4,435 bases of DNA, from IMG/VR virus record IMGVR_UViG_2548876863_000003, positions 1-4,435 of that record; one strand, 5' to 3'. This DNA comes from a virus. Its lineage: Duplodnaviria; Heunggongvirae; Uroviricota; Caudoviricetes. Positions 1-4,435 of the stretch are shown here, in pieces (the first letter of the stretch is position 1; each line of letters begins with the position of its first letter). Made by a program: the position numbers and the translations under genes. The notes below the pieces were generated by a model. The model worked only from the letters and a program-made list of their open reading frames with translations, was not told the DNA's origin and ran no database searches.

Positions 1-20
1 CAAAAACCCGTTATCCGGTG
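1..20 (-). terminator. Possible weak intrinsic terminator downstream of the repressor gene (minus-strand RNA ...CACCGGAUAACGGGUUUUUG)
   Basis: On the minus strand a short GC stem (CCGG/CGGG around a GAUAA loop) is followed by a U5 run. The stem is only 3-4 bp and the element lies at the window edge. No ORF continues leftward on the minus strand: all three frames hit stops at 11-13, 40-42 and 72-74. Confidence 0.2.
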
Positions 21-103
21 AAACGCAGCACCGCTCCGCTTAAGTGAACGGCATTGGACGCTAAGGTCGGGTTATTGTTGTGTGTTTTAGAGTGGTGAGG
101 CTG

Positions 104-757
104 TTAACTAAATGTCTCTTCAGGCCACTGGCTGGCGATAACTTTCCCTACTACGGAACAGCTATCATTGCATGGAATCATTGGATATTGCGGGTTTAGT
201 GGTTGTAGGAACACCTGACCGCTATCCCTGATCAGTTTCTTGAAGGTAAACTCGTCACCACCAAGTCTGGCTATGCAGAAATCACCTGGCTCAACAGCCT
301 GCTCAGGGTCAACGAGAATTAACATCCCGTCAGGAAAGCTTGGCTTGGATCCTGTTGGCGCGGTCATGGAATTACCTTCAACTTCAAGCCAAAACGCACA
401 ATCACTGGCTTTTTTGGTTGTGCTGACCCATCTCTCCGCATCACCTTTGGTAAAGGTTCTAAGCTCAGGCGAGAACATACCGGCCTGAACATGAGAAAAA
501 ACAGGGTACTCATATTGTTTTTTAACGGGGGCAGATGAGTATTCGCCAACAGGTGAAAATGTACCGTCGTGGTTGAATGAGACGTTATCAATACCAAGGT
601 ATTTAAACACCACACCAATCTCGTCAAGAGATGGATGACGAGATCCGCGCAACCAGTGACCAATTCCACCCTGCGTCATACCAAGCTCTTCGGCTAACTT
701 CTCTTGAGTTATGCCGAGCTCTTTCATTCTGGATCTAGCCAGTTCATACCATTTCAT
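104..757 (-). CDS. cI: CI-type prophage repressor: N-terminal XRE-family helix-turn-helix domain plus C-terminal S24 (LexA/CI) self-cleaving peptidase domain
   Basis: The ORF track gives 104..805, but that ORF begins with TTG. I place the start at ATG 757 ([18 protein letters not shown]...) because AAGGG lies 7 nt upstream; ATG 763 and ATG 799 are alternatives. The C-terminal domain carries the S24 hallmarks: a QAG Ala-Gly self-cleavage site, a GNSM serine motif and a GKVIASQW lysine motif. From [12 protein letters not shown] to the end it is near-identical to the phage lambda CI C-terminal domain as recalled from memory (only about 3 substitutions). The N-terminal HTH domain is unrelated to lambda's. 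The stop is TAA at 104-106. Confidence 0.9.
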
Positions 758-874
758 TTTCATACCCTTATTATTACGCTCTGTACTAAAATCATCCATG
801 CACAAGATGTATTTTTTGTTTGCATTCTAAAAGTACATATCGTATTATTGCGTTATGGTTACTATGGAGGGCAT
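758..874. promoter_or_regulatory. Divergent immunity control region (OR-like operators with PR-like and PRM-like promoters) between the repressor and cro
   Basis: Position between divergently transcribed repressor and cro genes, AT-rich. Candidate rightward promoter: -35 TTGCAT (820-825), 17-bp spacer, -10 TATTAT (843-848), then GGAGG (866-870) and cro ATG at 875. Candidate leftward -10 is TAGAAT on the minus strand (829-824). Individual operator sites could not be resolved by eye; there are short inverted AGTACA/TGTACT elements at 782-787 and 832-837 and TATTATT(A/G)CG repeats at 768-779 and 843-852. Confidence 0.5.
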
Positions 875-1090
875 ATGAGCAACCTACGAAAATATCGAGA
901 GTCACTGAATATCTCTCAAACAACACTTGCTAAGGCAGTTGGATGCACACAGGGAGCTATCGGACATTGGGAATCTGGTCGTCGCTTCCCAGACCTTAAA
1001 ACATGCCGTGCTCTTGTTGCGTGCCTAAACAAGTTAGGCGCAAAAGTCAGTCTTGATGACGTGTTCCCGCCGGAACACAAAGCCGCTTAA
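875..1090 (+). CDS. cro: Cro-like small HTH repressor (71 aa, XRE family)
   Basis: ATG at 875 with GGAGG 4 nt upstream; 71 codons; stop TAA 1088-1090. The HTH is ISQTTLAKAVGCTQGAIGHW, and its recognition helix (TQGAIGHW) closely matches that of the divergent repressor (TQGGIGHW), as expected for a repressor/Cro pair sharing operators. The protein ends in KAA. It is the 3' part of tracked ORF 704..1090, whose 5' extension overlaps the repressor start and is not credible. Confidence 0.85.
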   Translation: MSNLRKYRESLNISQTTLAKAVGCTQGAIGHWESGRRFPDLKTCRALVACLNKLGAKVSLDDVFPPEHKAA

Positions 1091-1100
1091 TAAGCGGATC

Positions 1101-1146
1101 CGCTCTTTGTAACAACGGACATTCGTCCTACGTCGCTGAAAAGCGA
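1101..1146 (+). promoter_or_regulatory. nutR-like antitermination site: boxA-like element followed by two short hairpins (boxB candidates)
   Basis: CGCTCTTTGTAACAA (1101-1115) resembles the boxA consensus (CGCTCTTA in lambda, TGCTCTTTAACAA in rrn). Hairpin 1 is GGAC-ATTC-GTCC (1117-1128). Hairpin 2 is TCGCT-GAAA-AGCGA (1133-1146), a 5-bp stem with a GNRA-type loop reminiscent of lambda boxB (GCCCU-GAAAA-AGGGC). The position between cro and cII matches lambda nutR. Confidence 0.45.
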
Positions 1147-1221
1147 GTTCCAAGATATCTGACCAACTAAGGCCATATGCGTTTCCACGCATACCTTTCA
1201 ACTAACTATTCACTACTGGAA

Positions 1222-1254
1222 ATCTTAAGAAATGGAACAAACAAGTTACAGCAA
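1222..1254 (-). promoter_or_regulatory. PRE-like CII-activated leftward promoter embedded in the 5' end of cII
   Basis: The minus strand reads TTGC-TGTAAC-TTGT (1254-1241), a TTGC-N6-TTGY direct repeat like the lambda CII box (TTGC-N6-TTGC). It is followed by 13 nt and then TAAGAT-TTCC (1227-1222 onward), which mirrors the lambda PRE layout as recalled (TTGC-N6-TTGC, 13 nt, AAGTAT-TTCC). The location in codons 4-8 of cII is the same as in lambda. Confidence 0.45.
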
Positions 1255-1528
1255 ACTATCACAGCGCGACGTTGATCGCGCAGAAACAGATTTACTCATC
1301 AACCTGTCAACGCTTACCCAGCGCGGTCTGGCAAAGATGATTGGCTGTCATGAATCGAAGATAAGCAGAACGGACTGGAGATTTATTGCTTCGGTCCTGT
1401 GTGCTTTCGGAATGGCATCAGACATCAGTCCGATTAGCAGGGCTTTTAAGTATGCGCTTGATGGACTCACCAATAAAAAACGCCCGGCGGCAACCGAGCG
1501 TTCTGAACAAATCCAGATGGATTTTTAA
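1232..1528 (+). CDS. cII: CII-like transcriptional activator (98 aa)
   Basis: ATG 1232; stop TAA 1526-1528. The C-terminus LTNKKRPAATERSEQIQMDF is essentially identical to the lambda CII C-terminus (ILTNKKRPAATERSEQIQMEF, from memory). The N-terminal 78 residues are diverged but of the same length and pattern (KISRTDW here versus QISRWKRDW in lambda). Confidence 0.9.
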   Translation: MEQTSYSKLSQRDVDRAETDLLINLSTLTQRGLAKMIGCHESKISRTDWRFIASVLCAFGMASDISPISRAFKYALDGLTNKKRPAATERSEQIQMDF

Positions 1529-1539
1529 CTGCTTTCTAT
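1474..1539 (-). ncRNA. oop: oop-like antisense RNA (about 66 nt) overlapping the cII 3' end, ending at a GC-hairpin plus U6 intrinsic terminator
   Basis: Plus-strand 1472-1524 (CAATAAAAAACGCCCGGCGGCAACCGAGCGTTCTGAACAAATCCAGATGGA) matches, as I recall it, the lambda sequence that encodes the 3' two-thirds of oop RNA. On the minus strand this gives ...CGCUCGGUUGCCGCCGGGCGUUUUUUAUU, a GC-rich hairpin plus U6 with the 3' end near 1474-1480. The predicted 5' end at about 1539 follows from the promoter at 1547-1555. Confidence 0.55.
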
Positions 1540-1546
1540 GGAGTTA

Positions 1547-1555
1547 ATTATGGCA
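1547..1555 (-). promoter_or_regulatory. pO-like extended -10 promoter (TGcCATAAT) for the oop-like RNA, overlapping the HNH gene start codon
   Basis: The minus strand reads TGCCATAAT (1555-1547), i.e. a TGn extension plus CATAAT hexamer. In lambda (from memory) the pO -10 is also CATAAT and also overlaps the start codon of the downstream rightward gene (O, ...TCATTATGACA...). Here the same hexamer overlaps the ATTATG of the HNH gene. Confidence 0.5.
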
Positions 1556-2350
1556 AAAAAACCTACACCAGACCAGGTAAAAAAGATTCGTTCCGGCATT
1601 ACCAAGAAAATACGGTTTGAGGTTTTCAAGCGCGATGGCTTCAAATGCCAGTACTGTGGGAGTTCTGCGCCAGACGTCATCCTTCATGTCGACCATATCA
1701 ACCCAGTTAGCAAGGGTGGCGATAACGACATGATGAACCTTATTACTTCTTGCGATAGTTGTAATGGCGGGAAAAGCGACAAACTGCTCAGCGATAACTC
1801 AATAATGGAAAAGCAAAGGCAGCAACTCCAGGAACTTAATACCAAGCGAGAGCAACTGGAGATGATGATCAAGTGGCGAGATGGTCTTAAGAGCCTGAAA
1901 GACGATGTTGTTGATATTGTCGCTACCAAAATTGACGACTGCATTGCGCCATTTACTGTTAATGACAATGGGCGAAAATCTATCAAGAGATGGCTTCGAA
2001 TATATAAGCTTGAAGAAATCCTCGATGCGATTGAGATTGCTGCAGACAAAAAACTCACCCAAGAAATAACCCATGAGCTTACTGGTGAATTCTTTGAGTA
2101 CATCCCTCGCATAGCAGCGACAAAAAGAAAACCGCCAAAAGAACAAAGGATTCTATACATCAGAGGAATCCTTAAAAACCGCATATATATCAATCAAAAC
2201 CATGTAATGAGTTATCTCAAGGCATGGCTTTCATACGACTTAGATCTCGATGAACTTACTGAGTTTGCGAAAACAGTACCTAACTGGACAACGTTCAAGG
2301 AGTGGGTATCTGAACGCATTCGTGAAGCTCAGGAAGAACTCCCGTACTAA
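1550..2350 (+). CDS. HNH-family endonuclease (about 266 aa) with an N-terminal HNH domain, a coiled-coil-like segment and a roughly 150-aa C-terminal domain of unknown function
   Basis: ATG 1550 with GGAG (1540-1543) 6 nt upstream; the in-frame ATG at 1538 lacks an RBS. The HNH motif is complete: CQYCG...LHVDHINPVSKGGDNDMMNLITSCDSCNGGKSDK (two Cys pairs, H-x-D-H, conserved N). A Q/E/L-rich heptad-like stretch follows (QRQQLQELNTKREQLEMMIKW). Stop TAA 2348-2350. The gene sits between cII and the replication initiator, in a co-directional tightly packed operon. Confidence 0.8.
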   Translation: MAKKPTPDQVKKIRSGITKKIRFEVFKRDGFKCQYCGSSAPDVILHVDHINPVSKGGDNDMMNLITSCDSCNGGKSDKLLSDNSIMEKQRQQLQELNTKREQLEMMIKWRDGLKSLKDDVVDIVATKIDDCIAPFTVNDNGRKSIKRWLRIYKLEEILDAIEIAADKKLTQEITHELTGEFFEYIPRIAATKRKPPKEQRILYIRGILKNRIYINQNHVMSYLKAWLSYDLDLDELTEFAKTVPNWTTFKEWVSERIREAQEELPY

Positions 2351-2361
2351 AGGTGGACAAA

Positions 2362-3249
2362 ATGGCACGTTCAAGAAATATCAAACCAGGCTTTTTCACC
2401 AATGATGAATTAGCTGAGTGTTCTCCATATGCCCGTCTCCTTTTTGCCGGGTTATGGACTATTGCTGACAAAGAAGGGCGGTTGGATGATCGCCCAAAGA
2501 AAATTAAAGCAATGGTACTGCCTTTCGATGATGTGGACTGCAATGATCTGCTTCAGCAACTTCACAGTCACAAATTCATCAACCGATATCAGGTAAATGG
2601 CGGCTCATATATCCAAATCAATAACTGGAAAAAGCACCAGAACCCTCACTGCAAAGAAGCTGCCAGTGAGATACCAGAACCAGTAGAGAACAATAACAGC
2701 ACCATGCAAGTACAGTGCAATGACGATAAAGGGGAAGAGAAGGAGGATGCAGAATCACTTCAAGTCATTGAAAACAATGAAGCACCAGAAAAGCACCATG
2801 CAAGTACAGTGCAAGAACAAGTTGAGAACAGTTTAAATCCTGCTGATTCCCTTAACCTGATTCCTGATTCCCTTAACCTGATTCCTGATTCCCTTTCTAA
2901 CACCCAAGCCGCTGACGCGACTTGTGAAGGGGGTGGGGCTGATGTCCATAAAATTTCAAGTCGCTATGCATTCGAAGGAAATATCGTTCGGTTAAACCAC
3001 AAGGATTACGAAGCATGGAAGCGCCTGTATCCGAACATTGACCTGAATTACGAGCTGGAAAGGCTGGATATCGAATTTAGCCATGAGAAGCCAAAGAACT
3101 GGTTTATCACTGCCAGCCAGAAACTCAGCTACCAGAACAAGCAGGCGTTATCCAGACCGGTACGCAAGGTTGCTAATGGACTTAAGGCTGAAAACTTTGC
3201 CACCAAGGATTACGGACAAACTGAAATGCCTTCATGGGCGCAGGAGTGA
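2362..3249 (+). CDS. Putative replication initiator (functional analogue of lambda O): conserved N-terminal domain, acidic low-complexity linker encoded by repeat DNA, C-terminal domain
   Basis: ATG 2362 with AGGTGG (2351-2356) 5 nt upstream; the tracked ORF starts at GTG 2353. Stop TGA 3247-3249. It lies immediately upstream of, and is translationally coupled to, the DnaC-like loader. The central region (about aa 95-200) is E/N/Q/D-rich low complexity and coincides with the DNA repeats at 2698-2901. The family assignment is not resolved from sequence alone; the protein is not lambda-O-like in sequence. Confidence 0.65.
   Translation: MARSRNIKPGFFTNDELAECSPYARLLFAGLWTIADKEGRLDDRPKKIKAMVLPFDDVDCNDLLQQLHSHKFINRYQVNGGSYIQINNWKKHQNPHCKEAASEIPEPVENNNSTMQVQCNDDKGEEKEDAESLQVIENNEAPEKHHASTVQEQVENSLNPADSLNLIPDSLNLIPDSLSNTQAADATCEGGGADVHKISSRYAFEGNIVRLNHKDYEAWKRLYPNIDLNYELERLDIEFSHEKPKNWFITASQKLSYQNKQALSRPVRKVANGLKAENFATKDYGQTEMPSWAQE
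2698..2720. repeat. Copy 1 of a 23-bp exact direct repeat AGCACCATGCAAGTACAGTGCAA
   Basis: Identical 23-mer at 2698-2720 and 2792-2814, offset by 94 bp (not a multiple of 3), so the two copies are translated in different frames (STMQVQC versus KHHASTVQ). The conservation is therefore at the DNA level. Confidence 0.8.
2792..2814. repeat. Copy 2 of the 23-bp exact direct repeat AGCACCATGCAAGTACAGTGCAA
   Basis: See copy 1; exact match read directly from the sequence. Confidence 0.8.
2843..2901. repeat. Tandem 21-bp repeats (CTGATTCCCTTAACCTGATTC x2 plus a partial third copy), an iteron-like array
   Basis: Units at 2843-2863 and 2864-2884 are identical; the third (2885-2901) diverges after CTGATTCCCTT. 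The core CTGATTC occurs five times (2843, 2857, 2864, 2878, 2885) with alternating 14 and 7 bp spacing. The array encodes DSLNLIP-DSLNLIP-DSLSN in the initiator linker. Confidence 0.8.
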
Positions 3250-3251
3250 AC

Positions 3252-4097
3252 ATGACGCTGGATGAAAAGATCTCCCAACTGGAGAAAAAACTTGCAGAAT
3301 TGAGTTCTCCGCCAATTGCTATCGAGCATACAGCTGTAGAAATTGGCTCTGGCATCTGTGAAAAACATGGTGAGTTTGAGCAGCGTAACCGTTACTCGAC
3401 TGGGCCAATTAAGTTTGCCTCAAGACCTAGCGAATGCCCGGAATGCATGAGAGATGAGCTTATTCGGCTACAGGCAGAGAAGATTAAAATCGACGAGGAA
3501 TCACGTAAGCGCAATGTCGAGTTTCTGTTGAATAATCTTGATATTCCTGAACGATTCAAGGGTTGCACACTGCAGAACTACGAGCCAGTCAACGACGATG
3601 CAAAGAGAGTGCTCAGGGTGTGTCAGGCATACGCCAGCAAATGGCCTGAGAGGTTACAGAAAGGCGGTGGGCTGGTTATGTGTGGAAAGCCTGGTACTGG
3701 AAAGAATCATCTTGCACTGGCTATCGCCCGGCACGCAATTACGGAACATCAAAGCTCAGCTATTTTCACAACGGCGCTGAAAATTGCCAGAGAATATAAA
3801 TCAACATGGTCGAAAAACTCCACCCGCACAGAGGATGAAGTGATCCGACAGTTCACTAAACCTGACCTGCTAATTATCGATGAGGTTGGTGTGCAGTTTG
3901 GAAGCGAGGCGGAAAAGATGATCATGTTCGAAATCATCAACACCCGCTACGAGCGCATGAAGCCAACAATCCTGATTAGCAACCAGAGCAAAGATGAACT
4001 GTCTGCATTCATTGGTGAGCGTGTTATTGACAGGATGAATGATGGCGGCGGATGCACCCTTGCGTTTACATGGGATAGTTACAGGAGCAGATCGTGA
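3252..4097 (+). CDS. DnaC/IstB-family AAA+ ATPase, putative replicative helicase loader
   Basis: ATG 3252 with AGGAG (3242-3246) 5 nt upstream; the tracked ATG 3234 lies inside the upstream gene. Walker A is GKPGTGKNHLALAI and Walker B is LLIIDEVG; the C-terminal region (ERVIDRM...SYR) is DnaC-like. The N-terminal region has a C-x2-H...C-x2-C cluster (CEKH...CPEC). Stop TGA 4095-4097. Confidence 0.9.
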   Translation: MTLDEKISQLEKKLAELSSPPIAIEHTAVEIGSGICEKHGEFEQRNRYSTGPIKFASRPSECPECMRDELIRLQAEKIKIDEESRKRNVEFLLNNLDIPERFKGCTLQNYEPVNDDAKRVLRVCQAYASKWPERLQKGGGLVMCGKPGTGKNHLALAIARHAITEHQSSAIFTTALKIAREYKSTWSKNSTRTEDEVIRQFTKPDLLIIDEVGVQFGSEAEKMIMFEIINTRYERMKPTILISNQSKDELSAFIGERVIDRMNDGGGCTLAFTWDSYRSRS

Positions 4098-4384
4098 CTG
4101 GAAAAGAAATCATCCTGGAATATCTGAAAACTCATGAACAATTCTCCCCACATGAATTAGCACTGATTACCGGAATACCAAATAACAGAATCGCTCAAGC
4201 AGCAAGGCATATGGTGAAACAAGGGCATTTGAGTGTTGTTGAGCGTAAGTGGAAGACGGTTATTTATGCAAAACGCAAAGTGAAGAAGGAGCCAATTAAA
4301 AGAAATCCAGATGGTACGGGGTGGGGATGTGCAAATCCAATGACGGCGTTTATTAATAGGGCGCTTATGGAGGTAAGGCAATGA
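4094..4384 (+). CDS. ren: Ren-like protein (96 aa)
   Basis: GTG 4094 overlaps the DnaC-like stop (GTGA), with AGGAG (4083-4087) 6 nt upstream. The N-terminus MTGKEIILEYLKTHEQF resembles lambda Ren (MTGKEAIIHYLGTHNSF, from memory); length (96 aa) and position directly after the helicase-loader gene match lambda ren. Stop TGA 4382-4384. Confidence 0.6.
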   Translation: MTGKEIILEYLKTHEQFSPHELALITGIPNNRIAQAARHMVKQGHLSVVERKWKTVIYAKRKVKKEPIKRNPDGTGWGCANPMTAFINRALMEVRQ

Positions 4385-4435
4385 ATAAAAAACAATTAGC
4401 CATTCTCGAAAAGGCATGGGATGCACAAATATCAT
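4381..4435 (+). CDS. 5' end of a downstream gene of unknown function (MNKKQLAILEKAWDAQIS...), truncated by the window edge
   Basis: ATG 4381 overlaps the ren stop (ATGA) and has GGAGG (4369-4373) 7 nt upstream. The frame is open to the window end. Only 18 codons are visible, and they do not resemble lambda NinB as I recall it. Confidence 0.5.
   Translation, partial: MNKKQLAILEKAWDAQIS

Follow-up and report, generated by a model that had tools for sequence, protein, structure and literature searches.

An iteron origin of replication placed inside the gene of its own initiator is the paradigm set by phage λ. We examined such an arrangement in a stretch of 4,435 nucleotides from a virus of the Caudoviricetes (IMG/VR virus record IMGVR_UViG_2548876863_000003, positions 1 to 4,435; hereafter the window), which contains the immunity/replication region of a lambdoid prophage, including a replication-initiator gene that carries an exact 23-bp direct repeat upstream of a block of iterons. 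An earlier sequence-only reading had presented this repeat as a probable DNA-level element of the origin. Our analysis suggests, with a probability of roughly 0.55, that the repeat belongs to arrays of 11-mers acting as accessory, helically phased origin elements, and that its letter-perfect identity at the distal position results from a recent conversion.

The likeness to λ ori extends to position, composition and context. In both systems the origin lies within the initiator's own gene, between the parts encoding an N-terminal DNA-binding and a C-terminal partner-binding domain; tandem iterons are present, here five copies of CTGATTCC, as in the O-iteron origins of other lambdoid and Shiga toxin (Stx) phages (PMC7466680); the gene follows cII and precedes a helicase-loader gene, and the flank of the iterons is strand-asymmetric (PMC5043065). 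The initiator of the window is however not homologous to λ O, with no match to Phage_rep_O or any other Pfam family, and its iterons are 8-bp direct units on a 7/14-bp grid, whereas those of λ are 19-bp dyad-symmetric sites. No AT-rich region adjoins the iterons, the loader is DnaC/IstB-like instead of a λ P, and a second repeat class, the phased 11-mers, is present that has no counterpart in λ.

Low-affinity DnaA sites in oriC are 9-mers set 2 bp apart in phased arrays (PMC6727663, PMC5043065), and these arrays guide cooperative filling (PMC6727663). The oriC arrays R5M-τ2-I1-I2 and C1-I3-C2-C3 resemble those of the window in that sites of weak conservation, four to five per array, recur every 11 bp (centre to centre) on one helical face beside strong initiator sites. 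They are the closest working analogy, although the 11-mers studied here are unrelated to the DnaA box, are located inside coding sequence and include two units that are 9-bp palindromes. The 13-mers of the DNA unwinding elements (DUEs) of oriC and RK2 oriV are likewise short tandem direct repeats beside initiator sites with strand asymmetry, but the window arrays are neither AT-rich nor thermodynamically unstable. The parC site of plasmid R1 has two blocks of about five 11-bp direct repeats and a spacer, bound cooperatively by the small dimeric protein ParR into a curved structure. Unlike the arrays of the window, parC is a partition site and not an origin, the likeness is one of description, and neither a ParR-like gene nor one for another small DNA-binding protein was found to accompany window-type arrays.

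Set beside these systems, what is new here is an uncharacterised initiator family, 8-bp iterons that are conserved at the nucleotide level across phyla, and a second, 11-bp phased repeat class that is read in three frames. No description of such an origin was found in the searchable literature, and a literature search on the iteron sequence returned no paper.

Arrays of 11-mers beside the iterons

The features needed for the argument are given below, with linkers classed by their length from the KHQNP motif to the iterons (213 bp in the window).

2362-3249, + strand: replication initiator gene in a λ O-like arrangement, 295 amino acids (open reading frame 2353/2362-3249)
2362-2652, + strand: region coding for the N-terminal domain (MARSRNIKPGFF...KHQNPH), presumed to be the iteron-binding module
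2676-2719, + strand: distal array of four 11-mers (d1-d4), AGAACCAGTAG AGAACAATAAC AGCACCATGCA AGTACAGTGCA, with AGNAC at 2676, 2687, 2698 and 2709
2698-2720, + strand: copy 1 of the 23-mer, made up of d3, d4 and a final A, translated STMQVQC(N)
2761-2780, + strand: conserved spacer block CAAGTCATTGAAAACAATGA between the arrays, of which the part ATTGAAAA scores 2.0 bits in the 213-bp class
2781-2835, + strand: proximal array of five 11-mers (u1-u5), AGCACCAGAAA AGCACCATGCA AGTACAGTGCA AGAACAAGTTG AGAACAGTTTA, with AGNAC at 2781, 2792, 2803, 2814 and 2825
2792-2814, + strand: copy 2 of the 23-mer, made up of u2, u3 and a final A, translated (K)HHASTVQ, the probable conversion donor
2836-2895, + strand: iteron block, with CTGATTCC at 2843, 2857, 2864, 2878 and 2885, encoding DSLNLIPDSLNLIPDSL

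On the + strand there are two exact occurrences of the 23-mer AGCACCATGCAAGTACAGTGCAA (2698-2720 and 2792-2814), as had been reported from the sequence alone; the window has no further copy at ≤3 mismatches, and two copies appeared in 0/200 dinucleotide-preserving shuffles. Both copies lie within the one open reading frame, and their identity ends at these limits, with C/A as the preceding and T/G as the following base. The 23-mer is composed of two tandem 11-mers and one further base (AGCACCATGCA, AGTACAGTGCA, A), and it is the 11-mer, repeated in larger 11-bp-phased arrays, that forms the unit, not the 23-mer as first proposed. That the unit measures 11 bp follows from perfect tandem copies of single units in relatives, with AGCACCATGCA and AGCACGGTGCA each present three times in tandem (in L082 and L087, respectively) and runs of AGTACAGTACA in L084. 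The two copies had also been described as flanking a core formed by the 21-bp repeat array; both are in fact upstream of that array (2843-2895). An origin-like block comprising the repeats and the 21-bp array does stand, at about 220 bp (2676-2895) compared with the roughly 200 bp claimed.

The proximal array directly abuts the iteron block, u5 being followed by AATCCTGCTGA TTCC..., where the iterons begin; the distal array is weaker and lies about 100 bp further upstream. The family consensus of the 11-mer is A-GCAC-N-GTGC-A (AGCACNGTGCA) with the invariant core AGNAY. Palindromes of 9 bp with an A on either side make up the best-conserved units, and within the distal array d4 (2709) is conserved best. 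Periodicity is evident in the window itself, where 11 of the 24 AGNAC sites on the + strand fall in 2633-2825 and the autocorrelation at lag 11 over 2632-2835 reaches 0.456, compared with 0.281±0.029 in codon shuffles (z=6, 0/20000). Likewise, not one of 20000 codon shuffles produced the chains of five and of four AGNAY sites spaced exactly 11 bp apart, and synonymous recoding of the same peptide gave P=0.005 for the five-site chain and P=5e-5 for nine chained sites. In the 40-kb genome of the related phage Dewey the motif is present at the origin only, which led us to reject the arrays as an operator of a phage regulator used elsewhere. Degenerate inverted iterons were rejected as well, since only u4 of some relatives (AGAATCAG) fits and the consensus resembles neither CTGATTCC nor its complement.

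Between the arrays, the spacer block (CAAGTCATTGAAAA) is invariant in the 213-bp class, third codon positions included. An IHF-like (integration host factor) site with one mismatch on the minus strand at 2761-2773 (TTTCAATGACTTG) represents a pattern that occurs at chance frequency across the window.

The iterons consist of 2.5 copies of a 21-bp super-repeat, with five 8-bp CTGATTCC direct units at 2843-2892 within the array, and are invariant in the relatives examined. A stretch of 60 bp is 100% identical in Vibrio phages, and a 30-bp core, GCTGATTCCCTTAACCTGATTCCTGATTCC (2842-2871), is nucleotide-exact in 39 genome contigs (L089-L127) from Enterobacterales, Acinetobacter, Betaproteobacteria, Lysobacter and Firmicutes (Desulfotomaculum, Peptococcaceae, Syntrophomonadaceae), as well as from metagenome-assembled genomes (MAGs) of Flavobacteriales and Thermomicrobiales. 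For iterons, such close conservation between phyla is out of the ordinary. Together with the N-terminal domain, which is the sole part of the protein common to all members from the phages of Vibrio, Acinetobacter and Pseudomonas through to Firmicutes prophages, the CTGATTCC iterons are one of the two features found in every member of the family. Near-identical Salmonella alleles of 288, 302, 309, 316 and 323 amino acids (P0015, P0010, P0002, P0001 and P0003) differ only in the number of DSLNLIP units, from 1 to 6, which means that the 21-bp iteron expands and contracts; the count of 11-mer units is fixed in these same alleles.

Register, reading frame and competing explanations

Relatives were collected by a protein-guided scan of viral contigs (80 loci) and an exact-match scan of genomes with the 30-bp iteron core (39 further loci), and the gene of the window was aligned with those of Dewey, HK639, the E. 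coli OW1E2 prophage and Hafnia phage yong1 (74-98% DNA identity). In all four of the latter, both copies occupy homologous, gap-free positions, though they have diverged from each other. The linkers found are as follows.

213 bp: 42 unique sequences, window included
225 bp: 8 unique sequences
141 bp: 10 unique sequences, with the iteron-proximal copy only and the whole distal array absent
147 and 354 bp: single cases
363 bp: HNH domain inserted (L076/L077)
132-153 bp: phages of Vibrio, Acinetobacter and Pseudomonas, without 11-mers

The 141-bp class was found in viral contigs of 36-50 kb and in genomes of Photorhabdus, Xenorhabdus and Morganella. Every sequence of the enterobacterial 141-, 147-, 213-, 225- and 354-bp classes contains the proximal copy, which is missing only from the class with the HNH insert. 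Conservation of both copies in related elements, which the sequence-only reading had put forward as a check, thus holds for the 213-bp class and fails for the 141-bp class, and the absence of the distal array from the latter implies that the distal copy is dispensable. The proximal array has an identical register and length, with zero indels from u1 to the iterons, in 61/61 unique array-bearing sequences, despite a total linker length of 132-363 bp. The five-unit register is seen in Enterobacterales and likewise in a Betaproteobacteria MAG (L100), Methyloversatilis (L127), Desulfotomaculum (L119), a Syntrophomonadaceae MAG (L096) and a Thermomicrobiales MAG (L093).

Lineages without AGNAC arrays (L105, L121, L006, L111, L102, L126) have other repeats at the same place and phase. 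In L105, L121 and L006 the arrays are replaced by AAATCGGAAGC at 22-bp spacing, and in some AGNAC-less lineages TTCCGGAA/TAACCGGAAC palindromes directly precede the iterons.

Given this register, it is distinctly unlikely that the arrays are a neutral by-product of slippage, in-frame duplication (33 or 72 bp) and conversion in a disordered, sequence-tolerant linker. Such an origin would agree with a linker that varies in length and tolerates an inserted HNH domain, with the class devoid of a distal array and the loss of the arrays in several lineages, with a demonstrable conversion event, and with neighbouring iterons that freely expand and contract. Neutrality, however, would not bar every indel between u1 and the iterons, nor does it agree with a number of 11-mer units that stays fixed while that of the iterons runs from 1 to 6. 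The core is moreover invariant, including third codon positions, while non-core positions drop to 0.3-0.9 bits (at ≤28% N-domain divergence and across phyla).

A period of 11 bp is not divisible by 3, and the reading of AGNAC therefore changes from one unit to the next (xxA-GNA-C, xAG-NAC, AGN-AC); A-P, K-H and S-T are all translated from AGCAC. The 94-bp offset between the 23-mers places them in different frames, as the earlier reading had recognized: copy 1 begins at codon position 1 (AGC ACC ATG CAA GTA CAG TGC, STMQVQC) and copy 2 at codon position 2 ((A)AG CAC CAT GCA AGT ACA GTG CAA, KHHASTVQ). The same DNA therefore gives different peptides, which supports the argument that protein selection cannot account for the identity and that an element at the DNA level is involved.

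Information content tracks the position within the 11-mer (1.82 bits at position 2, 1.95 bits at position 4) and is equal for codon positions 1, 2 and 3 (1.38, 1.39 and 1.30); where a core position coincides with a third codon position, the value is still 1.63 bits. At third codon positions the arrays show a diversity of 0.08-0.30, and the first 40 bp of the iteron block one of about 0, in comparison with 0.486 in the N-terminal domain, which shows a normal coding pattern, and 0.51 in the spacer at 2721-2768. In codons such as G[A/C/T]A, position 2 varies and position 3 is kept, and units u4 and u5 keep AGNAY while their residues change (E/A/V, Q/P, N/H). Among 18 non-redundant sequences of the 213-bp class, positions 1, 2, 4 and 5 of d4 (codon positions 3, 1, 3 and 1) are invariant and position 3 (codon position 2) is variable. 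As the core AGNAY is read in three frames with a conservation that is independent of codon position, the constraint acts on the DNA, and the linker peptide AP-EKH-x-ASTVQ is a three-frame translation of three successive 11-mers.

The opposite view, that selection acts on the linker peptide (AP-E-K-H-x-A-S-T-V-Q), for instance for docking a host replication protein, and that the DNA periodicity is incidental, appears very improbable to us. It could draw on the occurrence of H-x-[AT]-S-T-V-Q in distant lineages (HHASTVQ in L093, HGASTVQ in L100, HSTSTVQ in L096 and L119, YRTSTVQ in L089) and on some synonymous differences within the motif (GTG/GTA, ACA/ACG/ACT, GCA/GCC). Copy 1, however, encodes a different peptide from the same DNA, so that peptide selection cannot explain it, and the perfect 11-bp tandem copies in L082 yield three peptides from one unit. 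The retention of AGNAY in u4 and u5 across residue changes and the rarity of the nine-site chain under synonymous recoding likewise argue against a peptide as the selected entity.

The tandem direct repeats lie immediately beside the initiator sites, and the question arises of an unwinding element, that is, of arrays that open beside the iterons and are bound as single strands by the initiator or the loader. Within 2620-2900 the + strand is 62-78% purine over the arrays and spacer and then 25-28% in the iterons, with a sharp switch at the array-iteron junction; the unwinding region of λ is similarly asymmetric (PMC5043065). The position of the arrays is AT-rich in array-less Vibrio and Acinetobacter relatives, and no other AT-rich segment adjoins the iterons. 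We nevertheless hold this explanation to be unlikely. Duplex stability across 2660-2839 is average for the window (nearest-neighbour values between -1.28 and -1.39 kcal/mol per step, the window mean being -1.36; GC 38-47%), which led to the rejection of an AT-rich unwinding element in this flank. The 12 segments of 40 bp with the lowest stability in the window all lie outside the linker and the iteron block; the nearest is 2373-2412, in the region of this gene coding for the N-terminal domain. Units u2 and u3 are, in addition, GC-containing palindromes (GCAC-N-GTGC), a better fit to duplex recognition.

We give hardly any credence to an action of the 23-mers as a minus-strand hairpin or terminator, an antisense CII-dependent promoter, or a DnaA or IHF site. 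The internal dyads noted earlier (GCAC...GTGC, TGCA) are indeed present, and a loose consensus scan for terminators picks out each copy on the minus strand (GCACTGT-ACTTGC-ATGGTGC, then a T-rich tail). Folding of the single-stranded 23-mer is however no better than that of shuffles (z -0.45 to -1.3), which speaks against a hairpin or cruciform, no compensatory changes are found in the stem, whose inner pairs are mismatched in most lineages, and the flagged terminators are not conserved in HK639 or OW1E2. A minus-strand TTGC-N7-TTGC is present in a phage that encodes a λ-type CII, but the CII consensus requires N6, and the second TTGC is TAGC in HK639 and yong1. No DnaA box (TTWTNCACA at ≤1 mismatch) was detected within 2600-2900, no IHF site overlapping the 23-mers, no σ70-like promoter in 2300-3300, and no Rfam family matched there at E≤1. 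As to the suggestion that the copies are binding sites for the initiator or for host factors, no evidence singles out either type of protein.

We infer that the arrays serve as accessory elements of the origin, by which the nucleoprotein complex of initiator and origin would be extended or shaped along one helix face, either through cooperative low-affinity protein binding, as for DnaA on its 11-bp-spaced sites in oriC, or through sequence-directed wrapping of the array DNA. A more specific proposal, which we put forward as possible but tentative, is that the 11-mers are a previously undescribed second recognition element of a large phage initiator family, present in prophages of hosts that range from Proteobacteria to Firmicutes, in which palindromic A-GCAC-N-GTGC-A units in register with the CTGATTCC iterons would assemble the origin complex and the linker peptide would be their three-frame read-out.

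Several points weigh against an accessory role of the arrays. They are unlike both the iterons and the DnaA box and show no link to the type of C-terminal domain, the host phylum or a neighbouring gene. Clustering of open reading frames within about ±3.5 kb of the iterons at the 39 loci revealed no accessory gene co-occurring with the arrays other than the initiator. L121, L105, L124 and the Vibrio/Acinetobacter clade no longer have the arrays or have other repeats in their stead, and these losses, together with the 141-bp class, imply that their function is dispensable or substitutable. The main calculation of information content used a motif filter for the distant loci; an unfiltered calculation gave the same picture for the 213-bp class, to which it was confined. 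The peptide H-x-[AT]-S-T-V-Q is also conserved, which leaves room for some protein-level selection on copy 2. Low diversity could furthermore come in part from horizontal spread of the ori segment, although the high variability at non-core positions argues against this as its cause.

The arrays provide a testable anatomy for a type of origin that is common in enterobacterial prophages, including a Stx1a-converting phage, and that occurs in phages of other phyla. They also offer a natural example of DNA-level selection overriding protein coding, with one 5-mer kept in three frames. Should the arrays organize the initiation complex, they could be targets for blocking the induction-dependent replication of Stx prophages; should they be a second recognition element, the architecture of the origin would dictate some of its own initiator's sequence.

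Exact identity of the two 23-bp copies

In relatives of the 213-bp class, copy 1 reads [A/G]GCACCG[G/A]ACAAGAACAGTGCAA and is almost invariant over an N-domain divergence of 9-28%, copy 2 being the more variable of the two. The relatives carry the state GGACAAGAAC in copy 1, whereas ATGCAAGTAC is restricted to the window, L009 and Dewey, whose mutual N-domain divergence is <1%. The change from GGACAAGAAC to ATGCAAGTAC comprises four substitutions within 8 bp, every one of them towards copy 2, with unchanged flanks and at non-core positions of the 11-mers only; L008 shows two further changes. Clustered, clade-restricted changes of this kind point to short-patch conversion or a template switch from copy 2 to copy 1. 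This comparison of sequences indicates that the 23/23 identity is secondary, and that gene conversion or a template switch (8-23 bp) in a recent ancestor of this prophage clade overwrote four non-core positions of the distal copy with the sequence of the proximal one.

A recent duplication, which the sequence-only reading had offered as an alternative, does not agree with the alignment. Relatives with as little as about 66% protein identity have both positions filled, at the same coordinates throughout the 213-bp class (≤28% N-domain divergence), and identity ends at 23 bp, with no extended flanks shared as a recent segmental duplication would require. Single-copy forms belong to the distant 141-bp class, not to close relatives. 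Similarity between the arrays is found at lags of 72, 83, 94, 105 and 138 bp, each of which leaves a remainder of 6 on division by 11, and the best lag differs by lineage. In L029, L034 and L064 the distal copy lies 72 bp away and in frame with the proximal copy, and the 141-bp class is exactly 72 bp shorter than the 213-bp class. The lineage-dependent lags and the 72-bp-shorter class indicate that the distal array is an old duplicate, able to re-pair in several registers with the proximal one. The case shows how a recent conversion, superimposed on an older, weaker but functionally more meaningful periodicity, can give a conspicuous exact repeat.

On the minus strand, two antisense open reading frames at 2618-2758 and 2760-2903 (46 and 47 amino acids) each read the 23-mer as CTVLAWC, and are probably spurious. 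An antisense family of open reading frames is present in 15 loci and appears to mirror conserved DNA rather than coding.

Gene context of the origin

The remaining genes of the window are listed below.

104-772, minus strand: cI
875-1090: cro
1232-1528: cII, with a λ-type CII product
1550-2350: HNH nuclease gene
3252-4097, + strand: DnaC/IstB-like helicase-loader gene, the initiator's partner (Pfam IstB_IS21, 1.7e-18; NCBIfam DnaC, 2.6e-45, which falls short of the family cut-off)
4094-4384: small MarR-like gene

The order cI-cro-cII-(HNH)-initiator-DnaC-like loader places the initiator at the position of λ O. With the initiator gene (2353-3249) as query, 100% identity was found with the Stx1a-converting phage Stx1_121427 and two E. 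coli chromosomes, and 98% identity with phages Dewey and Louie; 18 E. coli genomes contain the full-length gene. PHROGs families labelled 'replication initiation protein' match the initiator at 1e-49 to 1e-10, and the profiles of Pfam, NCBIfam and PDB gave no match. Its homologues number 7018; among the 120 matches listed, nearly all are named 'hypothetical protein' and one 'primosomal protein I'. The protein is composed of a conserved N-terminal domain (amino acids 1-97), the origin-bearing linker and a variable C-terminal domain, and its AlphaFold2 model was unusable, with a mean predicted local distance difference test (pLDDT) score of 39.6.

The sole good CII box in our scan is a pRE-like site at 1241-1254 on the minus strand, TTGCTGTAACTTGT (TTGC-N6-TTGT), located at the start of cII on the opposite strand, where the CII-activated pRE promoter lies in λ.

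The nuclease gene directly upstream of the initiator varies, being of the HNH type in the window and Dewey and of the GIY-YIG type in the OW1E2 prophage (L003, 1810-2502), and in L076/L077 the HNH domain is inserted within the initiator linker itself. The origin region looks like a hot spot for homing endonucleases.

The final 60 bp of the initiator gene (3190-3249) share 93-98% identity with many otherwise unrelated 'replication protein' or 'O-like' genes of E. coli prophages, with matches that include N7, mEpX1 and dozens of genomes. This segment and the start of 3252-4097 together look like a recombination junction that joins different initiators to one DnaC-like loader.

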